A stretch of 28,034 nucleotides of DNA from an uncultured Gammaproteobacteria bacterium (lineage in GTDB: Bacteria; Pseudomonadota; Gammaproteobacteria; JADZEE01), in the NCBI GenBank assembly GCA_964610595.1, contig CAZSZW010000003.1, positions 1 through 28,034 of the forward strand. Direction: 5' to 3'. Made by a program: the position numbers and the translations under genes. Below the pieces are notes generated by a model. The model was given only the letters and a program-made list of their open reading frames with translations. It made no database searches and had not been told where the DNA came from. This document shows positions 8,400 through 28,034 of the stretch, one piece after another. Position 1 is the first letter of the stretch. Each line of letters begins with the position of its first letter.

Positions 8400-8432
8400 G
8401 TGCGTCCTTCGTCCGCGCCCGGTCCGGGCCTG

Positions 8433-8867: not shown

Positions 8868-9094
8868 GTCGATCCCGGTTCGGGCGGGCGCGCGGCGCGT
8901 GCCGTGGTCCAGTGATTGCAGGTGTGCAGCCTGTGGCGGCCGGCGTGCATGATACACTCGTGCGCGCGAGCGGCACACCAAGCGGGCGGGACCCGGCTGC
9001 GCGCACCAGCGGTGCCGGTGACACCGGGCCCCGACCGGACAGCGGCCGCTGTACGCCGGCGCTGCGGTCAGCCCCCGACCCGACGGCGACGGCC

Positions 9095-10687: not shown

Positions 10688-11847
10688 GCATCGGCCTTCG
10701 CGCCGCGCTCGCGCTCGCGGCGATCCTGGCCGCGGCCGGCGCCGGCGGCGAACCGACCGGCGCCGGCGATGGCGCCGCCGGCCACGCCGCCGCGCTCGAC
10801 GCCCTGCGCGAACGCATCGCGCAGATGGAAGCCGAGCTCGCGGGCCGGCGCCGCGAGCTGAGCAGCGCGAGCGCCGAGTTGAGCGCGGTGGACCGCGACC
10901 TCGAAGCCCGCACCCGGCACCTGCGCCAGATCGAGCAATCCCTGGCCGCGCGCCTGGCGCGCCTGCGCGAGCTGGAGGCCGAACGCGCCGCGCGCCGGCT
11001 CGAAGCCGGTCAGGGACGCGAGGCGCTGGCCCGGCAGCTGCGTGCCGTGCACCGCTTGGGCCGGCGCGACCGGCTGCGGCTGCTGCTCACGCAGGAGGAT
11101 CCGGACCGGGCCGGGCGCATGCTGGTCTTTCACCAGTACTATTCACGCGCACGGGCCGCGCGCATCGAGTCGCTGAGCGCGCGCCTGCGCGAACTGGAGG
11201 CGGTGCGCCAGGCGATCCGGCTCGAGACCGCCAAGCTGCGCCGGCTGCGCGCCGAGGCCGATCGCGCCGTGGCCGAGCTGGATTCGCGCCGTGCCGCGCA
11301 GCTTGCCGCGGTCGCCGCGATCGAGCGCGGCATCGACTCGCGCGCCGAAGCCCTGGCCGCCCTGCGCGAGAACCAAGCGCGCCAGCAGGCGCTGCTCGAG
11401 CAGCTCGAGGCGATCGAGCGCGCCGAGGGTGCGGCCCGCGAACCCTTTGCAACGCTGCAGGGGCGCTTGGCGTGGCCGGCCGCGGGCCGCGTGCTGCATG
11501 GCTTCGGCACCAGCCGCGGCGGCGATCTGTCCTGGCAGGGGGTCATGCTCGAGGTCGAGCCCGGAACCCCGGTCGCGGCGGTCAGTGCCGGGCGGGTGGT
11601 GTTCGCGGACGAATTCCGGCCCTTCGGCCGGCTCCTGATCGTGGACCACGGCGACGGCTACCTGACCCTGTACGGCCACATCGAATCCCTCGCCCGCGCG
11701 GCCGGCGATGCGGTCGAAAGCGGCGAGGTCGTCGGCACCGCGGGGCGCGGCGGCCGCGGCGCCGGCAACGTGTATTTCGAGATCCGCAAGGACGGCAAAC
11801 CGCTGAATCCGGCGCGCTGGTGCGGCACGCCGGCGACGAGCGGCTGA
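10684..11847 (+). CDS. envC: Murein hydrolase activator EnvC (coiled coil plus degenerate M23/LytM domain)
   Basis: GTG start overlapping the gpmI stop, signal peptide, long coiled coil. The M23 domain has WQGV and YFE where the Zn ligands would be, plus IVDHGDGYLTLYGH. Synteny gpmI-envC-ctpA. Confidence 0.88.
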   Translation: MSIGLRAALALAAILAAAGAGGEPTGAGDGAAGHAAALDALRERIAQMEAELAGRRRELSSASAELSAVDRDLEARTRHLRQIEQSLAARLARLRELEAERAARRLEAGQGREALARQLRAVHRLGRRDRLRLLLTQEDPDRAGRMLVFHQYYSRARAARIESLSARLRELEAVRQAIRLETAKLRRLRAEADRAVAELDSRRAAQLAAVAAIERGIDSRAEALAALRENQARQQALLEQLEAIERAEGAAREPFATLQGRLAWPAAGRVLHGFGTSRGGDLSWQGVMLEVEPGTPVAAVSAGRVVFADEFRPFGRLLIVDHGDGYLTLYGHIESLARAAGDAVESGEVVGTAGRGGRGAGNVYFEIRKDGKPLNPARWCGTPATSG

Positions 11848-11993
11848 CGTGCCGCTGGCCCGTGCCTTGCTTGTCACTCGAAGCGGGGGGCCTGTATGCT
11901 ATCCCGCGCTGCGTGCCGTGCCGACCTGCAGCCGACTGCCCGCGGTAGCGACCTCGTGAGCCCCACCCGCGCCATCCGAACGGAGCCGCGTCC

Positions 11994-13328
11994 ATGAGAC
12001 GTTCTGATCTGCTCGCACTGACCCTGCTGCCGTGGCTGATCCCCGGCCTGCCCGCGCCCGGCGCCGCCACGGACGAGACGGCCGTCGCCCAGACCCAGGC
12101 CGAGGCGCTGCCGCTGGACGACCTGCGCACCTTCACCGAGGTATTCGCCAAGATCAAGGCGGACTACGTCGAGCAGATCAGCGACCGGGAGCTGTTGGAG
12201 AACGCGATCCGCGGCATGCTCTCGGGCCTGGACCCGCACTCCTCGTACCTGGATGCCGAAGCGTTCAAGGGCCTGCAGGAAGGCACCAGCGGCGAGTTCG
12301 GCGGGCTGGGCATCGAAGTCGGCATGGAGGATGGCTTCGTCAAGGTCATCGCGCCGATCGACGATACCCCGGCGCAGCGTGCCGGCATCGAACCCGGCGA
12401 CCTCATCATCCGCCTGGACGACACACCGGTAAAAGGCATGAGCCTGGCCGACGCGGTCAAGCGCATGCGCGGCAAACCCGGCAGCGAAATCACCCTGACC
12501 GTGATCCGCGACGGCGAGCAGAAACCGCTGAAGATCACGCTCACGCGGGCGATCATCCGCGTCCAGAGCGTCAAGCAGCGGATCCTCGAGCCCGGCTTCG
12601 GTTACGTGCGCATCTCGCACTTCCAGTCGCACACCGGCGCCGATCTGCTCGCTGCGCTCGGGGCGCTCGAGCGCGACAACGGCGGTGAGCTCACCGGTCT
12701 GGTGCTGGATCTGCGCAACAACCCCGGGGGGATCCTCAGCGCCGCGGTGGACGTCGCCGACGCCTTCCTCGACGAGGGGCTGATCGTCTACACGCAGGGG
12801 CGGGTCAAGGATGCGGAGCTGTCGTTCAGCGCCAAGGCCGGCGACCGGCTCGAGGACGCACCGATCGTGGTGCTGGTCAACGGCGGCTCGGCCTCCGCTT
12901 CGGAGATCGTCGCCGGTGCGCTGCAGGATCTGAGCCGTGCGGTAATCATGGGCGAACCGACCTTCGGCAAGGGCTCGGTGCAGACCATCCTGCCGATGAA
13001 CAACGACGCGGCGCTGAAGCTGACCACCGCGCGCTACTTCACGCCGTCGGGCCGATCGATCCAGGCCGAAGGGATCCGCCCGGACATCGTCCTCGACCGG
13101 GTGCGGATCGCCGAGCTCGACAGCGACGACGACATGGTCAAGGAAGCCCACCTGCGCGGCCACCTGGAGAACGGCGACGGCGAGGAGCCCGAGGCCGGCA
13201 AGGATGACGAGGCACCGCCACCCGAGCAGCCGCCCGCGCCGGACGTTCCGCTCGCGCAGAGCGATTACCCGTTGTACGAGGCGCTCAATCTGCTCAAGGG
13301 GCTGGTGCTCCTGCAGGCGCGCCGGTAG
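11994..13328 (+). CDS. ctpA: Carboxy-terminal processing protease (S41, PDZ)
   Basis: LDPHSSYL, FGGLGIEV (PDZ), LVLDLRNNPGG, SASASEIVAGALQD and TFGKGSVQT. Confidence 0.93.
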   Translation: MRRSDLLALTLLPWLIPGLPAPGAATDETAVAQTQAEALPLDDLRTFTEVFAKIKADYVEQISDRELLENAIRGMLSGLDPHSSYLDAEAFKGLQEGTSGEFGGLGIEVGMEDGFVKVIAPIDDTPAQRAGIEPGDLIIRLDDTPVKGMSLADAVKRMRGKPGSEITLTVIRDGEQKPLKITLTRAIIRVQSVKQRILEPGFGYVRISHFQSHTGADLLAALGALERDNGGELTGLVLDLRNNPGGILSAAVDVADAFLDEGLIVYTQGRVKDAELSFSAKAGDRLEDAPIVVLVNGGSASASEIVAGALQDLSRAVIMGEPTFGKGSVQTILPMNNDAALKLTTARYFTPSGRSIQAEGIRPDIVLDRVRIAELDSDDDMVKEAHLRGHLENGDGEEPEAGKDDEAPPPEQPPAPDVPLAQSDYPLYEALNLLKGLVLLQARR

Positions 13329-13346
13329 CGTCCGGCCCCGGCCCGC

Positions 13347-14150
13347 ATGCCCGCTCCGATCGTTGCGGTGCTGGCGCTCAGCGCCCTGGTCGCGACCGCG
13401 GCCACGGCCGCCGAGGCGCAGCGGGCGCGACCGGCGCTGATCAGCGTGCTCATCGACGACATGGGTTACCGGCTCGGCGACGGACTGGCGGCGATCGCGT
13501 TGCCCGGCCCGCTCGGGTACTCCATCCTGCCCCACACCCCGCACGCCAAGCGCCTGCTCGAAGCGGCGCGGGAAGCCGGCCGGGAGGTGCTGGTACACCT
13601 GCCGATGGAAGCCGTGCAGGGCAACGGCCTGCTGGGTCCCGGCGCGCTGCGCGCGGACATGAACCACGAGATCTTCGTCGACACGGTGCACCAAGGGCTG
13701 GACTCGCTGCCCGCGGCGGTGGGCGTGAACAACCACATGGGCAGCCTGCTCACGCGCCACACGCTGCCGATGGGCTGGCTGATGCAATCGCTGAAGTCAC
13801 GCGGCCTGTTCTTCATCGACAGCCGCACCACCGCGCACAGCGTGGCCGCGCGCGTCGCCCGCGAACACGCCGTTCCGGTCCTGAGCCGCGACGTGTTCCT
13901 GGACAACGAGCGCGAAGCGGACCACGTGCGCGCCCAGTTCCATGCATTGGTCGCCATCGCCCGGCGCCGCGGCCATGCGCTGGGGATCGGCCACCCGCAC
14001 CCGGTCACCGTCGCGGTGCTGGCCAGCGAGCTCGCCGCCCTCGATCCGCTTGAGGTACGGCTGGTCAGCCCGGGCGAGCTGCTGCGTATGCGCGCCGTGC
14101 CGCCCGCACGCACCCTGCCCGCACCGCCGGCGATCCCGCTGCGTCATTGA
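13347..14150 (+). CDS. Divergent polysaccharide deacetylase (YibQ family)
   Basis: LIDDMG, VHLPME, GVNNHMGS, FFIDSRT, RDVFLDN and IGHPHPVT. Follows ctpA as usual. Confidence 0.9.
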   Translation: MPAPIVAVLALSALVATAATAAEAQRARPALISVLIDDMGYRLGDGLAAIALPGPLGYSILPHTPHAKRLLEAAREAGREVLVHLPMEAVQGNGLLGPGALRADMNHEIFVDTVHQGLDSLPAAVGVNNHMGSLLTRHTLPMGWLMQSLKSRGLFFIDSRTTAHSVAARVAREHAVPVLSRDVFLDNEREADHVRAQFHALVAIARRRGHALGIGHPHPVTVAVLASELAALDPLEVRLVSPGELLRMRAVPPARTLPAPPAIPLRH

Positions 14151-14410
14151 GCGGGCGGGCCGCAACGGTGACCGGGGCGGATTGGTTCGAGCTGGCGCGC
14201 CACCCGAGCGTGGTGCGGCGCGCCCTGAAGGTCGCGGTGCTGGTCGGCACCCTTCTCGTCGCCATCAATCACGGTGCCGCTCTGCTGGCCGGCGAGCTGG
14301 ATACGACGCGTGCGATCCAGGTGCTGCTCACCTACCTGGTGCCGTACTGCGTCTCCACCTATGCCGCGGTCGGGGCCTTGCGCGAGCAACCGGCGCAAGA
14401 CGATGTCTGA
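14147..14410 (+). CDS. Small two-TM protein resembling the nitrate/nitrite transporter NrtS family
   Basis: RRALKVAVLVGTLLVAINHG...LLTYLVPYCVSTY matches the NrtS pattern as I recall it. Overlaps both neighbours. Confidence 0.7.
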   Translation: MSGRAATVTGADWFELARHPSVVRRALKVAVLVGTLLVAINHGAALLAGELDTTRAIQVLLTYLVPYCVSTYAAVGALREQPAQDDV

Positions 14411-15473
14411 ACGTCGCCGCGCGGCCGCCGCGGCGCTGGCGCTGGCGCTGGCGGGCATCGGCCCGGCGGCGGCGCTCGATCGCGACGCGGCGCTGGCCGC
14501 CTACGCACGCGGCGACTACCGCAGCGCCGGGGTCGCCTTCGCCAGGCTCGCACGCCGCGGTGACGCCGTGGCGATGAACAATCTCGGGGTGCTGCACCTG
14601 CGCGGCCTGGGCGTGCCGCAGGACGATGCCAAGGCGCTGGCGCTTTTCCGCGCCGCCGATCGCAACGGGCTGACCGGCGCCAAGCACAACATCGGCATGA
14701 TGTACCTGCGTGGCCACGGGGTCGAGGCCGATCCGGCCGCGGCGGCGCACTGGTTCGCCGCCGGCGCCGAACGCGGCGACCGCGAGGCGCAATTCCAGCT
14801 CGCCCTGCTGCTGCACGCCGGCCGCGGGCTGGCGCGCGACCCCGAAGCTGCGCTGCGGCACTTCGAACAGGCCGCCGAGGCAGGGCTGCCCGCCGCGCAG
14901 TACAACCTCGGCGTGCTGTACCTGAACGGCGACGGGGCACCACCCGACGCCGAGCGCGCCGCGTTCTGGCTGCGACGCGCCGCCGAGGCCGGGCACGCCG
15001 AGGCGCAGCTGCAGCTCGGTTACCTGCTGTTCAAGGGCGGTGACGGCATCGAGCCCGACTACGTCGAAGCCGAGCGCTGGCTCGGCGCCAGCGCCGCCAA
15101 GGGCGATGCCGAAGCGCAGCTGAACCTGGGCATGATCGCGCTGCGCGGGCTGGCCGGCCCGCCCAATGCCGAGGCCGCCTTCCACTGGTTTCGCCGGGCC
15201 GCCGAGCAGGGCCACGTCGGGGCCCAGCACAACCTGGGGATCCTGTACTTCCAGGGGGTGGGTGCGCCGCTCGATCCGGTGCGAGCCTACGCGTGGTTCG
15301 ACGTCAGCGCCATGGGCGGCCACGAACAGGCTCGGCGCAACCTCGAGCTGCTCGATGCGCAGCTCACGGCCCAGGCCATCGCCGAGGCGCGCGCGCTGTC
15401 GGCGGAGTTCATCCGCGAGTTCGGCACTTACGGCAGCGCCGAGCGCGCGCCGGATCCGACCCCGGATCACTGA
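14403..15473 (+). CDS. Secreted Sel1-repeat protein
   Basis: Signal peptide MSERRRAAAAALALALAGIGPAAA, then seven Sel1 repeats (AMNNLG, AKHNIG, AQFQLA, AQYNLG, AQLQLG, AQLNLG, AQHNLG) and the typical AYAWFxxxA...A..ARA cap. Confidence 0.88.
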   Translation: MSERRRAAAAALALALAGIGPAAALDRDAALAAYARGDYRSAGVAFARLARRGDAVAMNNLGVLHLRGLGVPQDDAKALALFRAADRNGLTGAKHNIGMMYLRGHGVEADPAAAAHWFAAGAERGDREAQFQLALLLHAGRGLARDPEAALRHFEQAAEAGLPAAQYNLGVLYLNGDGAPPDAERAAFWLRRAAEAGHAEAQLQLGYLLFKGGDGIEPDYVEAERWLGASAAKGDAEAQLNLGMIALRGLAGPPNAEAAFHWFRRAAEQGHVGAQHNLGILYFQGVGAPLDPVRAYAWFDVSAMGGHEQARRNLELLDAQLTAQAIAEARALSAEFIREFGTYGSAERAPDPTPDH

Positions 15474-15601: not shown

Positions 15602-16360
15602 CTACTTCAGCATGACGCCCCCGTCGACGACGATGCTGGTGCCGACCACGTAGTCGCTCGCCGCCGAGGCCAGGAACACCGCTGCACCGGCGACGTCTTC
15701 GCAACGGCCGATGCGTCCGGCCGGGACCTTGCTCGCCGCCGCCGCGGTCACGCGCTCGATGGTCCGCGGATTCAATCCCGTGTCGATGTAACCGGGGCAC
15801 AGGGCATTGACCTGGATGTTGTGACGCACCAGCTCCAGCGCCATCGCCCGCGTGAGCATCATCACCCCGCCCTTGCTGGCGCTGTAGTCGGCGCTGCACG
15901 GCAGCGGCAGGAACGATCCCACCGAAGCGATGTTGATGATCTTGCCGTTGCCCTGACTCACCATGCGCCGGCCCGCCGCCTGTGCGCACAGGAACATGCC
16001 GGTCAGATTGATCGCGATCGTCTCCTGCCACTGAGCGGGCTCGATGTCCAGGAACAAGCGCGCGGCGCCGCCAGTGCCGGCATTGTTGACCAGGACGTCG
16101 ACGCGGCCGAAGCGCGCGACGACGGCATCGACCATCGTCTCGACCTCGGCGCGCTGCGTGACGTCGCAACGGTAAGCCGCGGCCTCGCTGCCCGCTGCAC
16201 GGATCGCCTCGCACGCCGCCTCGCACACCGCCAGGCGCCGCCCGCACAGGGCGACACGGGCGCCGGCCCCCGCCAGCGCCCGCGCGATGCCCAGGCCGAT
16301 CCCGCTGCCGCCGCCGGTGACGATCGCCACCCGGCCGGTCAGATCGAAAGTCACACTCAC
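15602..16360 (-). CDS. Short-chain dehydrogenase/reductase (SDR)
   Basis: TGGGSGIG, LVNNAG, IINIASV, catalytic YSASK and VNALCPGYIDT. Confidence 0.9.
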   Translation of the reverse strand: MSVTFDLTGRVAIVTGGGSGIGLGIARALAGAGARVALCGRRLAVCEAACEAIRAAGSEAAAYRCDVTQRAEVETMVDAVVARFGRVDVLVNNAGTGGAARLFLDIEPAQWQETIAINLTGMFLCAQAAGRRMVSQGNGKIINIASVGSFLPLPCSADYSASKGGVMMLTRAMALELVRHNIQVNALCPGYIDTGLNPRTIERVTAAAASKVPAGRIGRCEDVAGAAVFLASAASDYVVGTSIVVDGGVMLK

Positions 16361-17526
16361 GATGCGCCGACCGCGTCGCGCGCGGGCGGTGCGGCGCGGA
16401 CCTCGCCATCGAGCAGCTGCGCAGCCAGCGCCTCGAGGTGATCGTCAGCGTCGCCGAAGGCGCTCTCGGCCATGCGCGCGTGACGGAAGTAAAGCGGCAT
16501 CTCATGTTCCTCGCAGTAACCGATGCCGCCCATGACCTGGTGTCCGCGGCGCACGATGCGCCGGTAGGCCTGGCTGCAGCAGACCTTGGCCTTGGCGGCC
16601 AGCACCGGCTCCGGTGCTGCGCGGTCGATTGCCGCGGCCGCCTTGTACGTCAGCCAGCGCGCGCACTCCAGGTCCATGAGCATGTCCACGCAATGGTGCT
16701 GGATGGCCTGGAAGCTGCCGATCGGACGGCCGAACTGCTCGCGCTCGCGGGCGTAGGCGACGGCGGTATCCAGCACGCGCTGCGCGCCCCCGACCATCTC
16801 CGCGCACTTGCCCACCGTGGCTTCGAGCAACGCCCGGCGCAGCCCCTGCGCGGCCTGTTCGGGCTCGCCGAGCATGTCCGCGTCACTCACCTCTACGCCG
16901 GCGAAGTCCACCTGGTCGTACTGCGCGCCGCCGATGCACGGCATCGGCGTGCGCCGCACGCCGGGTGCATCCGCGGCGACGCGATACAGCGCCAGCGCCT
17001 CGTCCGCGCCGCTGCGTGCCGGGCACAGCAGCAGGTGCGCGGTCGCAGCGTCGGCGACGAACGGCACCGTACCCCGCAGCCTCACACCCGCGCGGACGGA
17101 CTCGGCGTGCACGGACACGGCGGACGCCTCGAGCGCCGCGCGCTGCGTGTCCAGCGCGAGCGCGAGGCGCAGTTCACCCCGGGCGAGGGGCGGCAACAGC
17201 GCCTGGCGCTGCGGCTCGGCGCCCGCGCGCAGCACACACAAGGCGCCGAGCACGGCGCTGGAGAACAGCGGCCCCGGCACACAGGCGTAACCAATCTCCT
17301 CGAGCAGGACGACCAGATCCACGAAACCGGCGCCGCTGCCGCCGTAGCGCTCGGGCACGAGCAGTCCCATCCAGCCGAGCTCGGCCATCTGCCGCCACAG
17401 CGCATCGTCGCAGCCGTGCGGCTGCAGGCGTGCGGCGCGCACCCGCGCCGGCGTGCAGGCCTCGGCCAGGAATTCCCGCGCGCTGTGCCGGATCAGCATC
17501 TGCTGTTCGTCGAGCTCCAGGTGCAT
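16357..17526 (-). CDS. Acyl-CoA dehydrogenase family protein, probable non-catalytic subunit of an alpha2beta2 pair
   Basis: MHLELDEQQMLIRHSAREFL, REQFGRPIGSFQAIQH and HQVMGGIGY. The SEPxAGSD FAD motif is degenerate and neither canonical catalytic Glu site is recognisable. Confidence 0.88.
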   Translation of the reverse strand: MHLELDEQQMLIRHSAREFLAEACTPARVRAARLQPHGCDDALWRQMAELGWMGLLVPERYGGSGAGFVDLVVLLEEIGYACVPGPLFSSAVLGALCVLRAGAEPQRQALLPPLARGELRLALALDTQRAALEASAVSVHAESVRAGVRLRGTVPFVADAATAHLLLCPARSGADEALALYRVAADAPGVRRTPMPCIGGAQYDQVDFAGVEVSDADMLGEPEQAAQGLRRALLEATVGKCAEMVGGAQRVLDTAVAYAREREQFGRPIGSFQAIQHHCVDMLMDLECARWLTYKAAAAIDRAAPEPVLAAKAKVCCSQAYRRIVRRGHQVMGGIGYCEEHEMPLYFRHARMAESAFGDADDHLEALAAQLLDGEVRAAPPARDAVGAS

Positions 17527-17551: not shown

Positions 17552-18763
17552 TCAAAGCCCGCGCGGCAGGCGCAATCCGCGCAGCGCCACGACGTTGCGC
17601 AGCACTTCGCTGGTACCACCGCCAATCGTGTCGATGACCGTTGCCCGGATCATGTGCGCGACCTCGCCGGCCAACGGCGCGCACGGTGAGCCCTGCTCGA
17701 GCCGGCCCCACGGCCCGAGGATATCCAGCGCCGCGTAGGCGATTCGCTGGCGCAGCTCACTGCCGACCAGCTTGACCAGCGTGCCCTCGGATTCGATGGG
17801 CTTGCCCGCACGCAACAGAAACAGCGCGCGCGCTTCGAAACACAGCGCGGCCTCCAGCTCGACCTCCATCTGCGCCAGTCGCCGGCGCACCCGGGGCTGT
17901 TCGGCGAGCCGGCGACCGTCGCGCACGGTCGTGCGCACGCAGGCGATCAGGCGATCGAGGAATGCCCGCAGCCGGATGTTCTGTGACAGCATCAAGCGCT
18001 CGTGCTCGATGGCCTCGATCATGTAATAGAAACCCCGGTTCGGCTCCCCGACCAAGCGAGTCTCGTGGACGCGCACCTCGTCGTAGAACACGGCGTTGGT
18101 GCGTTCGCCTCCCAGGGTCTGGATCGGGTCGATGGTGATCCCCGGGGCACGCTGATCGACCACGAACAGGCTGATGCCGCGGTGGCGCGGGGCCTGCGTG
18201 TCGGTGCGTACGGCCACCCAGTGGTAATCCGCGTAGTGGCTCTGGGTGTTGTACAACTTCTGTCCCGAAATGACGTAATACTCGCCGTCGCGCACGGCGC
18301 GCATCTGCATGGCGGCCAGGTCCGAGCCAGCCGGCGGCTCGGTGTAGCCGAGCCCGAACTCGATCTCGCCGGCGGCGATGCGCGGCAGGAACTCGCGCTT
18401 CATCCGCTCGCTGCCGTGGCGCAGGATCACCGGACCCGCCATCAGGCGCGCCACGCTGTTGGGCAGATACGCCTCCCGGCGCGCGAATTCCTGCGACAGG
18501 ATGATCTCCTGCGCCACGGTGCCGCCGCTGCCGCCGTATTGCGCCGGCCAGCCCGCGCCGAGAAATCCCGCCGCACCGAGGCGGCGCATGAACTCCCTGC
18601 CTTCGGGCCCCAGACCCTGGTCCAGCGGATGCTGGCGGCGCACCTGCTCGGTGAGCTCGCGATCCAGGAACTCGACCAGGCGGCGCTGGAAGTCGCGATC
18701 CTCGGCCGTGGAGTCCAGTTCGAAATCCAGGGACCGGCGCTGCGAGGACACGCTCGCGCTCAC
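17552..18763 (-). CDS. Acyl-CoA dehydrogenase, probable catalytic subunit of an alpha2beta2 pair
   Basis: C-terminal part of the 17552..19690 ORF; GTG overlaps the ligase stop. LGYTEPPAGSDLA, ISGQKLYNTQS, IEHER and TIGGGTSEVLRN. Confidence 0.88.
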   Translation of the reverse strand: MSASVSSQRRSLDFELDSTAEDRDFQRRLVEFLDRELTEQVRRQHPLDQGLGPEGREFMRRLGAAGFLGAGWPAQYGGSGGTVAQEIILSQEFARREAYLPNSVARLMAGPVILRHGSERMKREFLPRIAAGEIEFGLGYTEPPAGSDLAAMQMRAVRDGEYYVISGQKLYNTQSHYADYHWVAVRTDTQAPRHRGISLFVVDQRAPGITIDPIQTLGGERTNAVFYDEVRVHETRLVGEPNRGFYYMIEAIEHERLMLSQNIRLRAFLDRLIACVRTTVRDGRRLAEQPRVRRRLAQMEVELEAALCFEARALFLLRAGKPIESEGTLVKLVGSELRQRIAYAALDILGPWGRLEQGSPCAPLAGEVAHMIRATVIDTIGGGTSEVLRNVVALRGLRLPRGL

Positions 18764-20301
18764 TTGCGCACCAGCGCGCCGGCGCCGAGCCGCTCGCGCA
18801 GCTCGCCCTTGACCACCTTGTTCAGCGCATTGCGCGGCAGGCAATCGAGGAACACGACGTGGCGCGGGATCTTGTAGCGCGCCAGACGCCCGTCGCAGTG
18901 GCTCAGCACCTGTTCTGCACTGAGCTCGCAGCCCTCGCGCACGACCACGGCGGCGCACCCCACCTCGCCCCAGCGCTCGTCGGCCACACCGATGACGGCG
19001 GCCTCGGCGATGGCCGGCAGCTCGTACAACGCGTTCTCGACCTCGGCCGGGTACACGTTTTCGCCCCCGGAGATGTACATGTCCTTCCAGCGGTCGACGA
19101 TGTAGTAGTAGCCGTCGGCGTCGCGTCGTGCCGCATCGCCGGTGCGGAACCAGCCGTCGCAAAAGGCCTGCGCGGTGGCCTGCGCGTCGTTCCAGTAGCC
19201 GGGGGTCACCGACGGACCGCGGATCCAGATCTCGCCGACCTCGTCGACGCCCGCATCGCGCCCGTCCTGCGTGACCAGACGGATCTCGCCGTGCACCACC
19301 GGCATGCCGCAGGAGCCGACTTTCTCGAGCGGTTGGTCCAGCGCGCTGATGAGCACGCTCGGGCCGCCCTCGGTCATGCCGTAGCCTTCCTGGAAGGACA
19401 CGCCGCGTGCGCGCCAGCGCCGGTGCAGGCTCAGGGGCACGGGCGCTCCCCCCACCGCGGCAGCGACGATGCGCGACAGATCGACGCCATCGAACCGCGG
19501 GTGATCGCTCAACATCTGGTAGCTGGCCGGCACGCCCATCAGGTGAGTGATGCCGAGCGCCGTGTCGGCGACCAGATCGAGGATCCAGTCCGGATCGGAC
19601 TGGCGGCTGACGACCACGGTTGCGCCCGCGTGCAGGGCCGGATTGGAACCGTTGCTCAGACCGCCGACGTGGAACAGCGGCAGCGAGCACAGCTGCACCG
19701 AGGACTGCCCCACGCGCACGAGCATGCCGTAGTTCACGGCGTTGAACAGCGCCATCGCGTGGGTGATGACGACGCCCTTGGGCCGGCCGGTGGCGCCGGA
19801 GGTGTACAGGATGGTACAGGGCTCGTCGAGACGGGCCTCGAGCGGGGCGAAATCCGTGCGCGCGGCGCCGATCGCCCGTGCATACTCACCGCCGGTGCCG
19901 TCCTGCCCCCAGCCGAGCAGGCGCGTCCCGCTGCCCGCCGTGGCCGCTTTCGCGTTCCCGGCGTGGGTCTCGTCATGGAACAACACGCCGGGGACGGCGT
20001 TGGCGAGCTGCTGGCGCAGCTCCGTGGCGGTCAAGCGCCAGTTGAGCGGCACGTTGATCGCGCCGGCCTTGTGGCAGGCGTTCTGCACCACCAGGTGCTC
20101 GGGCGAGTTCTGCGCCAGTACCGCCACGCGCTCGCCGCGCGTGATGCCGAATTCATCGACCAGCAGCGCCGCCAGTGCACGGGCGCGGGCATCGAGCGCC
20201 GCGTAACCGAGCGTGCGCCGGCTATGGGCGTCGATCAGGGCGGGTTTGTCGGGCTGGCGCGCCGCGTGGCGCGCGATCCAGTCGTAGGCCTTCAGGTGCA
20301 C
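18760..20301 (-). CDS. Acyl-CoA synthetase / AMP-forming CoA ligase
   Basis: C-terminal part of the 18760..21333 ORF, starting VHLKAYDWIARHA. YTSGATGRPKG, EGYGMTE, FRTGD, ISGGENVYPAEVE and PRNALNKVVK. Confidence 0.92.
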   Translation of the reverse strand: MHLKAYDWIARHAARQPDKPALIDAHSRRTLGYAALDARARALAALLVDEFGITRGERVAVLAQNSPEHLVVQNACHKAGAINVPLNWRLTATELRQQLANAVPGVLFHDETHAGNAKAATAGSGTRLLGWGQDGTGGEYARAIGAARTDFAPLEARLDEPCTILYTSGATGRPKGVVITHAMALFNAVNYGMLVRVGQSSVQLCSLPLFHVGGLSNGSNPALHAGATVVVSRQSDPDWILDLVADTALGITHLMGVPASYQMLSDHPRFDGVDLSRIVAAAVGGAPVPLSLHRRWRARGVSFQEGYGMTEGGPSVLISALDQPLEKVGSCGMPVVHGEIRLVTQDGRDAGVDEVGEIWIRGPSVTPGYWNDAQATAQAFCDGWFRTGDAARRDADGYYYIVDRWKDMYISGGENVYPAEVENALYELPAIAEAAVIGVADERWGEVGCAAVVVREGCELSAEQVLSHCDGRLARYKIPRHVVFLDCLPRNALNKVVKGELRERLGAGALVRK

Positions 20302-21302
20302 GCGCCCGCGTCCTCGCCACCGACCGCCAGCACCACCTTGCCCATGACCTGACGGCTCTCCAGCAACCGGTGCGCCTCGGCGGCCTGCGCCAGCGGCAGC
20401 ACGGCGTGCACGTGCGGCGCGATGCGCCCGTTGCCGGCCAGGTCCACCAGCTCCTGCAGCGCCCGGCCCATGGCCGGCGCGTCGCTGGCCGCGACCGACT
20501 CCAGGCTCATCAAGCGCAGCGCCGGGCTGGCCCCGAAGGCGCCGAGCATGGCCGGCAGGAACTCGGGCGCCGGCGGCCCCTCGGCCATGCCGTAGAGCAC
20601 GATCTGGCCGAAGGGCGCGAGCATCGTCAGATCGTCGATCAAGGTGGCGCCCCCAACCGAGTTGAACACCACCTGCACGCCCAGGTCGCCGGCCTGCGCC
20701 CGCACCTGCGCGGCCAGCGCACCGGTGCCCGATTGCAGCACCGCGTCGGCGCCCAGGTCGCGCACGAAGCGGCACTTCGCCTCGGATCCCGCCAGCCCGA
20801 TCACGCGCACCCCCTGCAGGCGCGCGAGCTGCACCAGCGCCGAGCCCACGCCTCCGGCCGCCGCGTACACGACGATGGTGTCGCCGGCGCGTACCGGCGC
20901 CGTGCGCCGCAGCAGGAACCAGGCGGTGAGATAGTTCACCCCGATCGCCGCGCCGGCCGCGAAGGAAACCGCCTCGGGCAGGCGCGCGGCGAAAATCGCC
21001 GGGCAGGCCACGTACTGCGCCGCACAGCCGCCGGGCGTGACCACCGCGACCCGCGCGCCCATCCAATCGGGCGCCACCCCCTCGCCCGTCTCGACCACCA
21101 CCCCGGCCGCCTCGTAACCGGTCACGAAGGGCAGCGGCGGCATGTGCGGATACAGGCCGCGGCGCAGCTGCACGTCGCCGAAGCTGACGCCGACCGCGGC
21201 CACTTCGACCAGGAGCTGGCCGGGGCCGGCGCGGGGCCGCTCGACGCTTGCATGGTCCAGTACCTCGGCCGGACCCGTGTGCCGCAGCACGATCGCCTCC
21301 AT
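20292..21302 (-). CDS. Zn-independent MDR (quinone oxidoreductase / enone reductase type)
   Basis: GVSFGD and GYEAAG stand where Zn-ADH has GxCHxD and GHE. There is no four-Cys structural Zn lobe. Nucleotide motif AAAGGVG, and AHRLLESRQVMGKVVL. Confidence 0.88.
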   Translation of the reverse strand: MEAIVLRHTGPAEVLDHASVERPRAGPGQLLVEVAAVGVSFGDVQLRRGLYPHMPPLPFVTGYEAAGVVVETGEGVAPDWMGARVAVVTPGGCAAQYVACPAIFAARLPEAVSFAAGAAIGVNYLTAWFLLRRTAPVRAGDTIVVYAAAGGVGSALVQLARLQGVRVIGLAGSEAKCRFVRDLGADAVLQSGTGALAAQVRAQAGDLGVQVVFNSVGGATLIDDLTMLAPFGQIVLYGMAEGPPAPEFLPAMLGAFGASPALRLMSLESVAASDAPAMGRALQELVDLAGNGRIAPHVHAVLPLAQAAEAHRLLESRQVMGKVVLAVGGEDAGACT

Positions 21303-21389: not shown

Positions 21390-22175
<786 letters not shown>

Positions 22176-22316: not shown

Positions 22317-23477
22317 ATGCAACTCACGGATCCGCACAGCGTCGGTATCGACGCGCAACGCCTGCTGCGGCTGCCGCAGGCCATCGCCCGGGACGTCGAG
22401 ACCGGCCTGTACGACGGTGCCGTCATCGCCGTCGGCCGCCACGGTAATCTCGTGCTGCACGAGGCGATCGGCTACGCGGATCGGGCCGCGGGCCGTGCAG
22501 CCCGACTCGACGACGTGTTCGCGGTACTGTCACTGTCCAAGACGCTCACCAACGTGCTGGTACTGAACCGCTGCGAGCAGGGGGCACTGCGCCTGACCAT
22601 GCCGGTCGCGGAGCTGATCCCCGAGTTCGCGGTACTGGGCAAGCAGCACATCACCGTACAGCATCTGCTAACGCACACCGGCGGCCTGGGCGGTATGCCG
22701 CCTTTCCCGCTCGACCACATGCCCCTCGACCAGGCCATTGCGGCCATCTGCACCTTGCCGCCGCTGTCACCGCCCGGGCGCGCGGTCAGCTACAGCGGAC
22801 TGGCGGCACACGCCGTGCTCGCCGAGCTGGTACGCCGTGCCGACGGCGGCGCCCGCCCGTACCGCCAGATCCTGGACCAGGATCTGCTGCAGCCACTCGG
22901 CATGCACGACACTGCGCTCGGGCTGCGCGCGGACCTCGCGCCTCGCCGCGTGCCCATCGTCGTGCGCGACCAGAGCCCGGGTCTGCTGCCGCCACCCATG
23001 CTCGAGGGGCTGAACCAGGTCCTGGGCGAACAATCAGAGGTTCCCGCGATTGGCGCCTTCTCGACCGCAGCCGATTTCTACCGCTTCAGCGAGATGCTGC
23101 GCCGCGGCGGCGAGCTCGACGGCACGCGCCTGCTTTCGCCGCGCATGGTGGCGCTGGCGAACAGCAACTGGACCGGCGCGATGGTCAACGAGCTGTGGGC
23201 CTACGCCCGCGAAAGCCGCGGCTGGGCCGATCACCCGGCCTGGATCGGGCTGGGCTTCGCGCTGCGCGGGGAAGGCATCTTCCCGCACTACTACGGAACC
23301 CTGGCCTCGGCGCGCACCTTCGGCCATCAGGGCGCCGGCTCGACCCTGTTCTGGGTGGATCCGGCGCAGGACATGTGCTTCGTCGCGCTGACCGCCGGCC
23401 TGCTCGAGGAGTCGGCCAGCGTCGAGCGCTTCCAGCGCCTGTCCGATCTGGCCCTGGCCGCGATCGTGGCTCCGTGA
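22317..23477 (+). CDS. Serine hydrolase, beta-lactamase/EstB-like family
   Basis: SxxK motif (LSLSK), LLTHTGG, PGRAVSYS (catalytic Tyr) and FGHQGAG. No obvious signal peptide. Confidence 0.88.
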   Translation: MQLTDPHSVGIDAQRLLRLPQAIARDVETGLYDGAVIAVGRHGNLVLHEAIGYADRAAGRAARLDDVFAVLSLSKTLTNVLVLNRCEQGALRLTMPVAELIPEFAVLGKQHITVQHLLTHTGGLGGMPPFPLDHMPLDQAIAAICTLPPLSPPGRAVSYSGLAAHAVLAELVRRADGGARPYRQILDQDLLQPLGMHDTALGLRADLAPRRVPIVVRDQSPGLLPPPMLEGLNQVLGEQSEVPAIGAFSTAADFYRFSEMLRRGGELDGTRLLSPRMVALANSNWTGAMVNELWAYARESRGWADHPAWIGLGFALRGEGIFPHYYGTLASARTFGHQGAGSTLFWVDPAQDMCFVALTAGLLEESASVERFQRLSDLALAAIVAP

Positions 23478-23582: not shown

Positions 23583-26525
23583 ATGGCTAGCAACGAGCCC
23601 GGGATCCTGCCCGGCAACGGCGGCACGGCCGGCGGCACAACCCGCCGCGGCTTTCTCGCCTTCGGCGTCAGGTCCACGCTGGCGCTGGCGCTGTGCGAGC
23701 TCGCCCCCGCCCTCGACCGGGGCTTCATCGGCGAGGTACTGGCCGGCACCCGCAGCATCGCTTACGCCGGCTGGGAAGATCTGTATCGCAGACAGTGGCA
23801 CTGGGACCGGATCACCTGGGGCTCGCACACCAACGCCTGCTCGCCCGGCACCTGCCTGTTCCACGTCTACACCCGCAACGGCCTGGTATGGCGCGAGGAA
23901 CAGGCGGCGCGCACGCGCGCCAGCAATGCCGCGTACACCGATTACAACCCGCTCGGCTGCCAGAAGGGCTGCGCCTTCCACACCAGCCTCTACAGCGGCG
24001 AACGGGTCAAGTATCCACTCAAGCGCGCCGGTGAACGAGGCGAGGGCAAGTGGCAGCGGGTCAGCTGGGACGAGGCGCTGACCGCGATCGCCGACGCCAT
24101 CATCGACGGCCACCAGCGCGGCGGCACTTCGAGCTTCGTGCTCGACGGCCCGCACGTGCACGCCGGCAGCGTCGCCTCCGCGGCGGCATTCCGTTTCACC
24201 GATCTCCTCAATGGCATCCTGACCGACCACAACGTGCAGATCGGCGATACCTTCGTCGGCTGTCTCATCACCCTCGGCAAGATGCAGGTCGGCTACACGC
24301 CGGACAACTTTTTCGACGCACGCCTTGTGATCCTGACCCATTCGAACTGGTCCTATACCGCGCCGGCGCTGTACCACTTCATTACCGAAGCCCGCTACAA
24401 CGGCACCGAGATCGTGATGCTCGCACCGGACGCCAACCCGACCACGCATGCGGTGGACGTGCACGTACCGGTGCGGATCGGCACCGACGCCGCCTTCTGG
24501 CTGGCCGCCTGCCAGGTGATGATCGAGGACGGCATCTACGATGCCGGCTTCGTGCGCGAGCAGACCGATCTGCCGCTGCTGGTGCGCACCGACACGCGCC
24601 GCTATCTGCGCGCCGCCGAGGTCGACGGCGGCCGCGAGGACCAGCTGTATTTCTTCGACACAGCCGCCGGCCACATCGCGCCGGCGCCGCGCGCGACGCT
24701 GCGCCACGAATTCAACCCCGCTCTCGAGGGCGAGTTCCCGGTGATGCTGGCCGACGGTACGCGGGTAACGGTCACGCCCGTATTCGCGCTGCTGCGCAGC
24801 CAGCTCGACGCGCGCTACCGGCCGGAGCAGGCGCAGGCGCTGTGCGGCGTACATGCCTCGGTGATCCGGGACCTTGCCACCAGGATCGCGACCCGGCGCA
24901 CCTGCTGCTACACCGGCTTCAACAACGGCAAGCACTACCACGGTGACCTGATGGAGCGCAGCCTGCTGCTGGCGCTCGCGCTGTCCGGCAACGTCGGCAA
25001 GCCGGGCACCGGCATCACCATCTGGTCGTTTCCGGCGGACGGCATTTCGCTGCTCGCGGGGATGGAAAAGCCGGTCGCGCAGGGTGGCATGGCCATCGGC
25101 ATGGAGTTCGCCCAGGCGCTGGCGCGCGAGATGACGGCGCGCGATCCGGAGATCACCGAGGAGCTCGTCAACATCGAGATGATGAAACAGATGACGCGCC
25201 GGCTCGGCCAGTCGCCGTCGTCCTTCTGGCTCTACCATCACGTCGGCTACGACAAGCTGTGGAACCGGCGCGAGTGGCAGGATCCGGCCATGCCGCGCTC
25301 GTTCGGGGAGTACATGGAAGCCGCGGTGGCGAAAGGGTGGTGGGACGGACTGGTGCTGCCCGAACCCGGCAAGCCGCCCGAGGTCGTGATGTACATCGGC
25401 AACAATCCGCTGCGGCGCGTGCGCAGCGGCAACGTCCAGTACCCGAAGGAGCTGTTTCCGAAGGTCAAGACCATTTTCGCGGTCGAGACCCGGATGTCGT
25501 CGTCGGCGATGTACTGCGACTACGTGCTCCCGGCCGCGTGGTATTACGAAAAGGAGGACATGACGCTGTCGATGACCGCCAGCCCCTACATCTCGCTGAT
25601 CGAGAAGGCCGTGGAGCCGGTCGGGGAGGCGAAGGAGGAATGGCAGATCTTCGGTCTGCTGCTGCGCAAGATCGCCGAGCGCGCGGCGGCGCGCGGCATC
25701 GACGGGGTCACCGACCGCTTCGGCCAGCGGCGCGACTACGCCGGCCTCTACGAGCGCTACACGCTCGGCGGCGCCGTCAAGGACCACAACGCGGCGGTAC
25801 GCGAGATGGTCGCGGTCAAGGTCGCGACCGGCATCTTCCCGCGCGACTACAGCTACGAGCGCCTGCGCGAGGACGGCACCGTGCCCTTGCACGGCATGGG
25901 CGTGACCTTCCAGCGCCACGCGGTCGCGAACGAATACGATCCGGACAAGCCCTTCTACAGCCTGCGCTGGCACACCGAGGAGAAGCTCCCGTACCCGACC
26001 TATGCGCGACGCATGCAGTTCTACATCGACCACGAGTGGTTCCTCGAGGTCGGCGAGGAGCTGCCGGTGCACAAGGACATACCGCCGATCGGCGGCAACT
26101 ACCCGTTCCAGATCACCAGCGGCCACCCGCGGGTCAGCATCAACTCGGTGCATCTGGCCAACGAGCAGTTGAGCCGCCTGCACCGCGGCCAGCCGGTGAT
26201 CTTCATGAACGACGGCGACGCCGCTGCGCTCGGCATCGCCGACAGCGAGATGGTGCGCGTGTACAACGACGTCGCCGGGTTCGAGATCATGGCCAGCCTG
26301 CAGGCGTGCGTCGCACCGGGACAACTGATCGTCTACTACTGGGAACCGTACCAGTTCCGCGACTGGAACAACTTCGACGGCGTACTGGTCGGTCTGCCGA
26401 AGGCGCTGCACTTCGCAGGCGGCTACGAGCAGCTGCGTTACTTCTACATGCACGGCAGCCCCTACGCCTCGGTGGACCGCGGCGTGCGCGTGGGCGTGGA
26501 GAAACTGAACCGAGGAGTCGTGTGA
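23583..26525 (+). CDS. ebdA: Ethylbenzene-dehydrogenase-like molybdoenzyme, alpha subunit (type II DMSO reductase family)
   Basis: RBS GAGGA. Tat signal TTRRGFL. FS0 motif GSHTNACSPGTC...NPLGCQKG, GPHVHAG, IGDT (Asp Mo ligand), YHGDLMERS, ETRMSSSAMY, HPRVSINSVHL and YEQLRYFYMHGSP. Long stretches match Aromatoleum EbdA as I recall it. Confidence 0.88.
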   Translation: MASNEPGILPGNGGTAGGTTRRGFLAFGVRSTLALALCELAPALDRGFIGEVLAGTRSIAYAGWEDLYRRQWHWDRITWGSHTNACSPGTCLFHVYTRNGLVWREEQAARTRASNAAYTDYNPLGCQKGCAFHTSLYSGERVKYPLKRAGERGEGKWQRVSWDEALTAIADAIIDGHQRGGTSSFVLDGPHVHAGSVASAAAFRFTDLLNGILTDHNVQIGDTFVGCLITLGKMQVGYTPDNFFDARLVILTHSNWSYTAPALYHFITEARYNGTEIVMLAPDANPTTHAVDVHVPVRIGTDAAFWLAACQVMIEDGIYDAGFVREQTDLPLLVRTDTRRYLRAAEVDGGREDQLYFFDTAAGHIAPAPRATLRHEFNPALEGEFPVMLADGTRVTVTPVFALLRSQLDARYRPEQAQALCGVHASVIRDLATRIATRRTCCYTGFNNGKHYHGDLMERSLLLALALSGNVGKPGTGITIWSFPADGISLLAGMEKPVAQGGMAIGMEFAQALAREMTARDPEITEELVNIEMMKQMTRRLGQSPSSFWLYHHVGYDKLWNRREWQDPAMPRSFGEYMEAAVAKGWWDGLVLPEPGKPPEVVMYIGNNPLRRVRSGNVQYPKELFPKVKTIFAVETRMSSSAMYCDYVLPAAWYYEKEDMTLSMTASPYISLIEKAVEPVGEAKEEWQIFGLLLRKIAERAAARGIDGVTDRFGQRRDYAGLYERYTLGGAVKDHNAAVREMVAVKVATGIFPRDYSYERLREDGTVPLHGMGVTFQRHAVANEYDPDKPFYSLRWHTEEKLPYPTYARRMQFYIDHEWFLEVGEELPVHKDIPPIGGNYPFQITSGHPRVSINSVHLANEQLSRLHRGQPVIFMNDGDAAALGIADSEMVRVYNDVAGFEIMASLQACVAPGQLIVYYWEPYQFRDWNNFDGVLVGLPKALHFAGGYEQLRYFYMHGSPYASVDRGVRVGVEKLNRGVV

Positions 26526-27604
26526 TGGCATACGCACCCGAGGGCAGCAAGCAGGACCTCATCGCCGCGCAGCGCCAGCTCGCCACGGTCATCGACCTGA
26601 ACAAGTGCATGGGCTGCCAGACCTGCGTGGTTGCCTGCAAGAACCTGTGGACGCTGCGCGAGGGCACCGAGCACATGCGCTGGATGAACGTGACGACCTA
26701 TCCGGGTCGCGGTTATCCGCGCGACTACGAGCAAAAGGGCGGTGGCTTCCGCGACGGCGAGCCACAGCCGGGGACACTGACGACACTCGCCGAGTGCGGC
26801 GATCACTTCCAGTTCAACCACGACGAGGTGCTGAACCAGGGGCGGGGCCAGCAGGCGCGGTTCGAGCCGCGGACCGCCGCCGGCGAGCGCCCCGACTGGG
26901 GGTACAACTGGGACGAGGATCGCGGCGGCGGGCGGTGGCCGAACGGCTACCGCTTCTACCTGCCGCGCATGTGTTACCACTGCAGCAATCCGCCGTGCGT
27001 GCAGGCCTGCCCGAACAACGCGATCTACAAGCGCGAGGCCGACGGCATCGTGCTCATCGATCAGGATCGCTGCCGCGGGCACCGGCACTGCGTCGAGGCC
27101 TGTCCGTACAAGGCGATCTATTTCAACCCGGCAAGCACCACCAGCGAGAAGTGCATCCTGTGCTTCCCGCGCGTGGAGAAGAACGTCGCACCGGCGTGCA
27201 ATCGCCAGTGTCCGGGGCGCACGCGCGCCTTCGGTTACCTCGATGACGCCGACTCCCAGGTGCACAAGCTGGTGCGGAAATGGCGTGTCGCGCTGGCGCT
27301 GCACCCGGAGTACGGCACCGAGCCCAACGTCTACTACATCCCGCCCTGGTCGCCGTTCGCCTACGACGACCAGGGCCGGCTGACCGGGGAGATGCGCATC
27401 CCGGTCGAGTTGCTCGAGCAGCTCTTCGGCCCGGCCGTACACGGGGCGCTCGCGCTGCTCGCCAGCGAGCGCGCGAAGAAGATGAACGGCGAACCCTCGG
27501 TACTGATGGACATCCTCAACAGCCGGGTCTGGGAAGAGCGCTTTGCCGGCTTTACCGCCGCGCCGCTCGAAGCGCACGGCGCCGGCGGGGAGAGCGCCCC
27601 GTGA
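26525..27604 (+). CDS. ebdB: Ethylbenzene-dehydrogenase-like beta (Fe-S) subunit
   Basis: Start overlaps the alpha stop. Cys groups CMGCQTCVVAC, CYHCSNPPCVQAC, CRGHRHCVEAC (3Fe-4S type) and CILC...ACNRQC. GTEHMRW.NVTTYPG.GYPRDYE and WGYNWDED match EbdB as recalled. Confidence 0.9.
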   Translation: MAYAPEGSKQDLIAAQRQLATVIDLNKCMGCQTCVVACKNLWTLREGTEHMRWMNVTTYPGRGYPRDYEQKGGGFRDGEPQPGTLTTLAECGDHFQFNHDEVLNQGRGQQARFEPRTAAGERPDWGYNWDEDRGGGRWPNGYRFYLPRMCYHCSNPPCVQACPNNAIYKREADGIVLIDQDRCRGHRHCVEACPYKAIYFNPASTTSEKCILCFPRVEKNVAPACNRQCPGRTRAFGYLDDADSQVHKLVRKWRVALALHPEYGTEPNVYYIPPWSPFAYDDQGRLTGEMRIPVELLEQLFGPAVHGALALLASERAKKMNGEPSVLMDILNSRVWEERFAGFTAAPLEAHGAGGESAP

Positions 27605-28034
27605 AGGCGGCGAGGGTGGCAATCGCAACCGCGTCGCTCGCGGATCCCGCGGCACGCCCCTGGGCACGGGCCGCGCGCGAGACGCTGCAGATGGTGCCCA
27701 CGCCGCTCGCGCTGGTGCACGAGGTGTCGCCGTTCCTCGCGCGCAGCACCGATCACGGCCGCGTGACCGAGCTGTCGGTCGCGCTGCTGCACAACGGTGA
27801 GGTGCTGGCGCTGCGCCTGTCCTGGGACGCCCCGCGGCCGGTCGACGCGCTCGCCGATCTGGATCGCTTCGTCGACGGCGCCGCTGCGATCTTCCCGCTG
27901 GCCGAGGGTGCGAGCGCGGTGACCATGGGCTCGCCGGGCCGGCCGACCAATGCCTGGTACTGGAAGGCCGGCGCGAAGACGGCCTGGGATGTGATTGCCG
28001 AGGGATTCGGCAGCAGCCGGCGCAGCGCCGGCGC
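27601..28034 (+). CDS. ebdC: Ethylbenzene-dehydrogenase-like gamma (heme b) subunit, truncated by the window end
   Basis: Not in the ORF track. GTG overlaps the beta stop. It reads VKAARVAIAT...MVPTPLALVHEVSPFLARSTDHG...LHNGEVLALRLSW...FVDGAAAIFPLAEGASAVTMGSPGRPTNAWYWKA...IAEGFG, with the heme-ligand Met in AVTMG. Confidence 0.88.
   Translation, partial: MKAARVAIATASLADPAARPWARAARETLQMVPTPLALVHEVSPFLARSTDHGRVTELSVALLHNGEVLALRLSWDAPRPVDALADLDRFVDGAAAIFPLAEGASAVTMGSPGRPTNAWYWKAGAKTAWDVIAEGFGSSRRSAG

Follow-up and report, generated by a model that had tools for sequence, protein, structure and literature searches.

An ethylbenzene dehydrogenase-type molybdenum enzyme of a distinct subclade, with its own conserved gene cluster, in an uncultured gammaproteobacterium

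The question raised by this locus is whether three genes at the end of a contig from an uncultured gammaproteobacterium encode a counterpart of the ethylbenzene dehydrogenase EbdABC, as proposed in an earlier note made from the sequence, or another enzyme of the same type. The window, by which the whole stretch of DNA analysed is meant, is one whole GenBank contig of 28,034 bp (P0124) with a G+C content of about 70% over its full length. Our answer, which we consider likely to be correct, is that the genes encode an enzyme of the ethylbenzene dehydrogenase (EBDH) type that belongs to a distinct subclade and is not an EbdABC orthologue, probably an alkyl hydroxylase that feeds a beta-oxidation-type pathway and whose substrate is probably not ethylbenzene. 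Because DNA of about 70% G+C contains many spurious long open reading frames (ORFs), genes in the window were chosen by their G+C content at third codon positions (GC3 > 0.8) and by domain content. The subunit genes are as follows.

23583..26525, plus strand: alpha subunit, the catalytic protein with the molybdenum bis(molybdopterin guanine dinucleotide) cofactor; 980 amino acids, starting MASNEPG, with the twin-arginine translocation (Tat) signal TRRGFLAFG
26525..27604, plus strand: beta subunit, a four-cluster iron-sulfur protein; 359 amino acids, Cys motifs aligned to EbdB
27601..28034, plus strand: gamma subunit, an EB_dh-domain protein that binds heme b; first 144 codons, then the window ends

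The start of the gamma gene and the stop of the beta gene overlap by 4 nt. An ORF of 1167 amino acids antisense to alpha (23034-26537, minus strand), which was missing from the GC3 > 0.8 list, was rejected as a high-GC artefact, and so were many further overlapping ORFs of more than 300 amino acids without the GC3 signature of real genes.

When the three proteins were compared with all PDB chains using phmmer, the top matches of alpha, beta and gamma were chains A, B and C of 2IVF, respectively, with 1209, 565 and, for the partial gamma, 144 bits. The next-best match of alpha, PcrA, reached 392 bits, beta gave 369 bits against PcrAB, and NarGH was also far behind. A genuine three-subunit enzyme of the EBDH family is therefore present, as the earlier note had claimed, and the five motifs quoted there were all found: GPHVHAG in alpha, CRGHRHC in beta, and EVSPFLA, AVTMG and NAWYWKA in gamma. 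Identity counted from the phmmer alignments was 53% to EbdA, 65% to EbdB and 53% to EbdC. A contig from the Joint Genome Institute (L001), which covers window positions 15366-28034 at 98.3% nucleotide identity, was used as a proxy for the full-length gamma subunit and for the chaperone. In L001 and in the related loci L003, L084, L085 and L090 a gene for a NarJ-type chaperone (Nitrate_red_del) lies 3' of gamma, giving the gene order alpha-beta-gamma-chaperone. An exact-sequence look-up of beta gave no match, and a relative of 99% identity (P0001) was used in its place.

The active-site signature of alpha is of the EBDH type, because the FS0 ligands and the equivalents of His192, Asp223 and Lys450 of EbdA are all kept. 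In the window the FS0 ligands are H82, C86, C91 and C126, and the alignment places H191 (in GPHVHAG) at EbdA His192, D222 at Asp223 and K450 at Lys450, the numbering of alpha running one off that of EbdA between residues ~89 and 410. All these positions were invariant in the group at about 49% identity or more (138 of 138 sequences). Asp223 is a ligand of molybdenum and is held by Lys450, and His192 serves as a proton relay (PMC7803848; PMC6153880; PMC6308299). Ahy, Cmd and S25d sequences are reported to have another residue in place of this histidine (PMC7803848; PMC6153880), and in unnamed groups at 43% identity or less the aligned position was found to be a gap, T, N, I or V. In beta, four of four Cys motifs align with EbdB. 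In gamma, the heme ligand Met108 (AVTMG) is inside the window and the position of Lys201 falls past its end; the latter residue, the Lys of GRKS[YF]SG, is kept in the gamma of L001. Given these conserved catalytic residues, the O2-independent C-H activation proposed earlier may reasonably be expected of the enzyme.

Orthology to EbdA was assessed by three independent tests, namely database neighbours, a neighbour-joining (NJ) tree and curated hidden Markov models, and all three speak against it. Relatives of the window alpha were found at 99, 83, 81, 77, 73, 71, 69 and 68% identity, after which identity dropped to 59% or less. EbdA itself (recovered as P0055, 100%) had 28 cluster representatives extending from 100 down to 63%, followed by a drop to 56%. 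The window clade stands at 52-56% identity to EbdA, and the window alpha is no nearer to EbdA than to more than 100 unnamed cluster representatives.

The NJ tree of alpha subunits was built from 154 sequences and 959 columns with Kimura-corrected distances and 200 bootstraps. Haloferax NarG was used as the root and Ideonella ClrA as a second named outgroup, both found by tblastn against plasmids, a search that returned no EBDH-like genes and had ClrA and haloarchaeal NarG-type genes at ~31% as its sole matches. Bootstrap support was 100% for the window clade, 100% for the EbdA clade and 100% for the whole group carrying His192. The window alpha thus stays inside the wider His192-bearing EBDH group, but in a clade of its own outside the EbdA clade. 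Membership of the latter is not supported, which by the standard set in the earlier note itself amounts, taken strictly, to a refutation.

The curated models gave the same picture. The window proteins scored 1290.9 against a cut-off of 2000 for the NCBIfam equivalog of EbdA and 572.8 against 740 for EbdB, and the L001 proteins scored 255.9 against 400 for EbdC and 145.1 against 360 for EbdD. All four cut-offs of the Ebd equivalog models (NF042978-NF042981) were missed; these models were nonetheless the best-scoring ones in NCBIfam. The word 'close', by which the homologue had been described, was therefore an overstatement.

At the level of the subfamily, alpha scored 980.7, just short of the TIGR03479 cut-off of 984.75, beta was above that of TIGR03478 (502.9 against 480.7), and the full-length gamma of L001 was above that of TIGR03477 (173.2 against 169.85). 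Scores of this order, one slightly short of its threshold and two above theirs, would also suit an oxyanion or dimethyl sulfide (DMS)-type enzyme of the same subfamily (chlorate, perchlorate, selenate or nitrate reductase, or DMS dehydrogenase) that is not a C-H hydroxylase. However, the identity of alpha is only 34% with ClrA and 32% with Haloferax NarG against 53% with EbdA, PcrA gave 392 bits where EbdA gave 1209, ClrA falls outside all EBDH-like groups with 97.5% support, and the locus has neither chlorite dismutase nor a respiratory context, its flanks being catabolic. This explanation is hardly credible.

A more serious alternative is a functional ethylbenzene (or propylbenzene) dehydrogenase, the gammaproteobacterial counterpart of Aromatoleum EbdABC. 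It could account for EbdABC being the best solved match of all three subunits, for the rank of the Ebd equivalogs among the NCBIfam models, for the conservation of His192, Asp223 and Lys450, and for the name 'ethylbenzene dehydrogenase' given to close relatives in GenBank. Against it stand an alpha identity that is shared with more than 100 unnamed relatives, the position outside the fully supported EbdA clade, the wide margins by which the four equivalog cut-offs were missed, and the surroundings of the genes, where a different conserved cluster was found in place of ped and the acetophenone carboxylase genes. We regard this alternative as unlikely. The position in the tree, the equivalog cut-offs and the neighbouring genes all argue against orthology to EbdABC, and we take the sequence as the founding type of a separate subclade that is as yet uncharacterised.

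The gene context in the window consists of the following genes upstream of alpha.

22317..23477, plus strand: family VIII (beta-lactamase-fold) carboxylesterase, 386 amino acids, S-x-x-K motif SLSK, 105 nt upstream of alpha
21390..22175, minus strand: enoyl-CoA hydratase, 261 amino acids, EchA19-like below cut-off, divergent from the esterase-ebd operon
20292..21302, minus strand: medium-chain reductase of the quinone-oxidoreductase/PIG3 type, by domain content
18760..20301, minus strand: acyl-coenzyme A (CoA) ligase, 513 amino acids, best solved relative feruloyl/fatty-acyl-CoA synthetase (8wev/8weu)
17552..18763, minus strand: acyl-CoA dehydrogenase of the PimC-like large subunit type, by domain content
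16357..17526, minus strand: acyl-CoA dehydrogenase of the PimD/IpdE2-like small subunit type, by domain content
15602..16360, minus strand: short-chain dehydrogenase/reductase (SDR) that opens the conserved cluster; 34% identity to ped, the SDR beside canonical ebdABCD

In relatives on longer contigs the NarJ-type chaperone is the first gene 3' of gamma, and it is followed on the opposite strand by genes for a ChsH2-type DUF35 protein, a thiolase-like ("lipid-transfer") protein, a 537-amino acid flavoprotein of the VAO/PCMH type and a zinc-dependent alcohol dehydrogenase (Zn-ADH), and beyond these by an SDR, a TetR regulator and a SnoaL-domain protein. The whole cluster amounts to about 17 genes: the esterase, the ebdABCD-like genes, DUF35, the thiolase-like protein, the flavoprotein, Zn-ADH, two SDRs, the CoA ligase, the acyl-CoA dehydrogenase pair, the enoyl-CoA hydratase, the quinone oxidoreductase-type reductase and TetR. 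By tblastn it was kept together with the enzyme in L003 (82% alpha identity), L004 (86%) and L034 (76%), L001 and L090 have these genes around the enzyme as well, and part of the cluster was present in L084 (73%) and L085 (72%). In all clade loci compared by tblastn, the last two included, the ligase, the hydratase and Zn-ADH were retained, and the family VIII esterase was kept in clade members as far as the 73% alpha relative. Beside the EBDH-like genes of other subclades (L005, L011, L014, L017, L019 and L087) the cluster was essentially missing in the same tblastn comparison, the exceptions being DUF35-like matches in L005 and L017 and an acyl-CoA dehydrogenase match of 29% in L019.

In the canonical EbdA contig (L091), ebdABCD are followed 72 nt after ebdD by a co-directional SDR gene, which is ped, the gene for 1-phenylethanol dehydrogenase. 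In the window clade the chaperone gene is followed by the DUF35 gene, which runs in the opposite direction, and identity to ped is only 29-34% for the two SDRs of the cluster. No ped orthologue and no genes of the acetophenone carboxylase (apc) type or the hydantoinase family were found within 10 kb of any clade member.

Comparison of the accessory proteins with the PDB gave family-level matches (a VAO/PCMH FAD domain, family VIII esterases, feruloyl/fatty-acyl-CoA synthetase, butanediol dehydrogenase), and these do not fix a substrate. Their top NCBIfam matches were EchA19, PimCD, IpdE2, FadD3, CasG and the Ltp-type thiolase, all below cut-off, which may be a hint of bulky acyl-CoA substrates. 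The same matches raise the question whether the enzyme hydroxylates steroid or isoprenoid side chains, in the manner of the steroid C25 dehydrogenase S25DH, and would feed a beta-oxidation of sterol- or terpenoid-type side chains. The best NCBIfam matches of the neighbours have a steroid or bulky-acyl flavour, with an EchA19-like hydratase, heteromeric acyl-CoA dehydrogenases like PimCD and IpdE2, a ligase like FadD3 and CasG, and a lipid-transfer-protein-type thiolase with ChsH2-type DUF35 in the cluster. However, each of these matches is far below its cut-off, enzymes of the S25DH type are without the His192 that is kept here (PMC6153880, PMC7803848), and the groups lacking this residue at 43% identity or less are well separated in the tree. 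Such a function is therefore quite unlikely.

Among loci of the subclade some variation around the enzyme was seen. In L090 (ERZ13693045; 14654-17292), which falls in the same 90% cluster, gamma and the chaperone are separated by a SnoaL_4 gene, and two pairs of PIN-toxin/antitoxin (VapBC-like) genes stand between the chaperone and DUF35 genes, so that the cluster apparently tolerates insertions. In L085 (~71-72% alpha identity; 6225-9406) and in L086 the esterase gene is replaced, directly upstream of alpha, by the E1-alpha, E1-beta and E2 genes of a dehydrogenase complex of the 2-oxoacid/acetoin type, and genes for TonB-dependent receptors flank the L085 locus and L084. The flanks of the cluster as a whole differ in L003 and L090, three different flanks being found among relatives, which is how a module that moves over evolutionary time would behave. 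A check for recent transfer or an island in the window showed uniform G+C and GC3, no integrase and no tRNA.

In a metatranscriptome from one bioreactor, exact contigs of 150-260 nt at depth 2-3 were found on gpmI (a host gene described below), the hydratase, alpha, beta and gamma. These short contigs are a weak sign of low-level transcription and may also stem from DNA carry-over. Scans of three intergenic regions for inverted repeats gave no convincing operator or terminator.

Under the favoured explanation, the enzyme would be a periplasmic, Tat-exported molybdenum/iron-sulfur/heme b protein of alpha-beta-gamma composition and EBDH type. By analogy with ethylbenzene dehydrogenase, Mo(VI)=O would take hydrogen from an unactivated alkyl C-H bond, a hydroxyl derived from water would rebound with the aid of the conserved His, and FS0-FS4 and heme b would then carry two electrons to an acceptor in the periplasm, for example cytochrome c (mechanistic background on C-H hydroxylation and electron transfer in PMC8840923 and PMC6308299). 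The candidate substrate is an aromatic, alicyclic or isoprenoid compound that would be hydroxylated on an alkyl side chain, and the alcohol would then be oxidised, activated with CoA and shortened by beta-oxidation. Judged from the sequence, the physiological substrate is probably not ethylbenzene.

Several points weigh against this explanation. The order in which the window and EbdA clades branch received 27% bootstrap support in the NJ tree of 154 sequences, and 22% in an earlier tree run (window clade 98.5%, EbdA clade 96%), so the two may yet be sister clades. The distance from CmdA, S25dA, AhyA and EbdA2 is drawn, not from named sequences in the tree, but from the reported loss of His192 (PMC7803848) and from the absence of this residue in unnamed groups at 43% identity or less. 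Gene context is an imperfect discriminator, since L087, a locus of the EbdA clade, likewise has no ped and no apc nearby. The pathway is read from domain content alone, because the accessory genes all stay below equivalog cut-offs. Moreover, ethylbenzene dehydrogenase itself takes many alkylaromatics, so that turnover of ethylbenzene by the window enzyme in vitro is quite possible.

The flanking genes point to the host. Upstream of the cluster lies a block of core genes.

6874..15473, both strands: host core block with gpsA, secB and a rhodanese gene (minus strand), then gpmI, M23/EnvC, CtpA, YibQ and a Sel1-repeat protein (plus strand)

E. coli K-12 has the same layout, yibN-grxC-secB-gpsA / gpmM-envC-yibQ, apart from grxC, which is missing in the window, and ctpA, which is inserted there. 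The best named relatives of GpmI (64-74%) are metagenome-assembled genomes (MAGs) labelled "Gammaproteobacteria bacterium" and "Chromatiales bacterium", and its top 120 matches contained no Rhodocyclales and no cultured organism. Relatives within the clade are also labelled Gammaproteobacteria (FW602_bin.2, SJ809, TAK56106.1). The Rfam and tRNA scans of the window gave nothing useful for host taxonomy. The flanks were as the earlier note had described them, namely pilus genes of the mannose-sensitive haemagglutinin (MSHA) type (AAA_22, secretin, PilN, PilM), gpsA-secB-rhodanese on the minus strand and gpmI-M23(EnvC)-S41(CtpA)-YibQ on the plus strand, and its view of a chromosomal locus in a gammaproteobacterial host unlike Rhodocyclales is borne out by the GpmI relatives and the labels of the clade relatives. 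The host thus appears to be an uncultured member of the Gammaproteobacteria found in sludge or bioreactor samples, and the subclade as a whole comes from uncultured Gammaproteobacteria of sludge, bioreactor, groundwater and soil samples. Members of the 83% (P0002) and 77% (P0004) clusters carry Sphingomonadales and Phycisphaerales labels, which points to binning noise or horizontal transfer.

Two further observations were made in this part of the window. The pilus block (184-5517, minus strand) encodes PilM-like and PilN-like proteins, an unknown 346-amino acid protein, a secretin and an AAA_22 ATPase in an order that fits mshI-J-K-L-M; the best NCBIfam match of the ATPase was the model for the XrtA/PEP-CTERM-associated ATPase, below cut-off. 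Between the pilus genes and gpsA (5657-6505, minus strand) a single-domain Ion_trans protein of 282 amino acids (134 bits) is encoded, which we take to resemble a bacterial voltage-gated cation channel.

An artefact of assembly or binning could in principle have created the link between the cluster and a gammaproteobacterial chromosome, as the cluster has different flanks in L003 and L090, and the L001 contig ends within the Sel1 gene. However, L001 spans the junction between core genes and cluster (15.47-15.60 kb) from position 15366 and keeps the 3' end of the Sel1 gene joined to the SDR gene. Unbroken Logan contigs from independent sludge and bioreactor runs of at least two studies cover 13375-20000, 14430-20000 and 15103-15865, G+C and GC3 are unchanged across the junction, and relatives were independently labelled Gammaproteobacteria. 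The check for chimerism at 15-16 kb that had been suggested earlier therefore found none: the contig is not chimeric there, the junction is real, and we give an artefact almost no weight. The Sel1-repeat gene (14274-15473) is a break point of several independent assemblies (L001 starts at 15366, Logan contigs end at ~14430), and this is probably the reason why a junction there had come under suspicion. The runs X1 and X2, from two studies, show identical contig tables and may be one dataset deposited twice.

Part of this was already visible in public databases. Members of the 90% cluster of alpha are in GenBank as "ethylbenzene dehydrogenase [Gammaproteobacteria bacterium]" (TAK56106.1), and the 83% cluster includes RIK95004.1 under the same enzyme name. 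In a genome scan, 12 of the 20 loci at 49% identity or more among the matches listed bear gammaproteobacterial labels (Immundisolibacter, Pseudomonadales, "Enterobacteriaceae" and unclassified); the matches listed were MAGs only, with no loci of Aromatoleum, Sterolibacterium or Desulfococcus among them. EBDH-like genes are common in MAGs labelled Gammaproteobacteria, and an S25DH-like enzyme was noted in the gammaproteobacterium Steroidobacter denitrificans (PMC6153880, a review). The suggestion of a host not known for such chemistry is accordingly weak, given the near-identical GenBank proteins and these labels. A literature search found no paper on the window clade or on its gene cluster. 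What is new here is a subclade of a known enzyme family with a gene cluster of its own.

To our knowledge, substrates of the EBDH family are known for a handful of enzymes only (ethylbenzene, p-cymene, sterol C25/C26, possibly alkanes), and the gene surveys we know of routinely equate any EBDH-type match with "anaerobic ethylbenzene degradation". The present locus shows that this equation is unsafe, as a 53%-identical homologue with intact catalytic residues belongs to another well-supported clade with its own pathway genes. It is conceivable, and we put it forward tentatively, that these genes represent an undescribed O2-independent route in which EBDH-type hydroxylation of a substrate other than ethylbenzene (for example an alkyl-substituted aromatic, alicyclic or terpenoid compound, or an ester of it) is followed by a dedicated beta-oxidation, and that this route is widespread in uncultured Gammaproteobacteria of wastewater and groundwater. 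If characterised, the clade would add one substrate to water-dependent C-H hydroxylation and provide a marker for the catabolic capacity of uncultured sludge and groundwater Gammaproteobacteria; at present its value is that of a solid, unsurprising refinement of annotation.

Among known systems, EbdABC(D) of Aromatoleum aromaticum EbN1 (2IVF) shares with the window enzyme the A-B-C-D gene order, the Tat signal, the FS0 motif, Asp223, Lys450 and His192, the four Fe-S motifs of beta and the heme ligands Met108 and Lys201 of gamma, so the same chemistry, a periplasmic water-dependent C-H hydroxylation, is expected. The window enzyme differs from it in subunit sequence (53/65/53% identity), in clade, in staying below all the Ebd equivalog cut-offs, in lacking apc genes and a ped gene directly downstream, in host class and in conserved neighbourhood. 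One locus of the EbdA clade (L087, GCA_963853585.1, 7062-12895; 68% to EbdA) has tandem alpha genes of 972 and 964 amino acids before a single beta-gamma-chaperone set, which suggests alternative catalytic subunits with one common electron-transfer module. The unnamed EBDH-like enzymes of Immundisolibacter, other Gammaproteobacteria, Myxococcota and 'Deltaproteobacteria' MAGs (49-59%) fall with the window enzyme in the same His192 group (100% bootstrap), have comparable identity to EbdA and come from mostly uncultured hosts, but form subclades separate from the window clade. The p-cymene dehydrogenase CmdABC, S25DH and the alkane hydroxylase AhyABC resemble the window enzyme in architecture and in the O2-independent type of alkyl hydroxylation, and their products enter oxidation and CoA-dependent pathways as proposed here; unlike them, the window enzyme keeps His192, reported to be replaced there (PMC7803848, PMC6153880), a separation drawn from these reports and not from named sequences. 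ClrABC, PcrAB and archaeal pNarGH belong with it to the type II dimethyl sulfoxide reductase family, with Asp-ligated molybdenum and the same subunit plan, but at 32-34% identity they stand outside the EBDH-like groups and are reductases in respiratory contexts.

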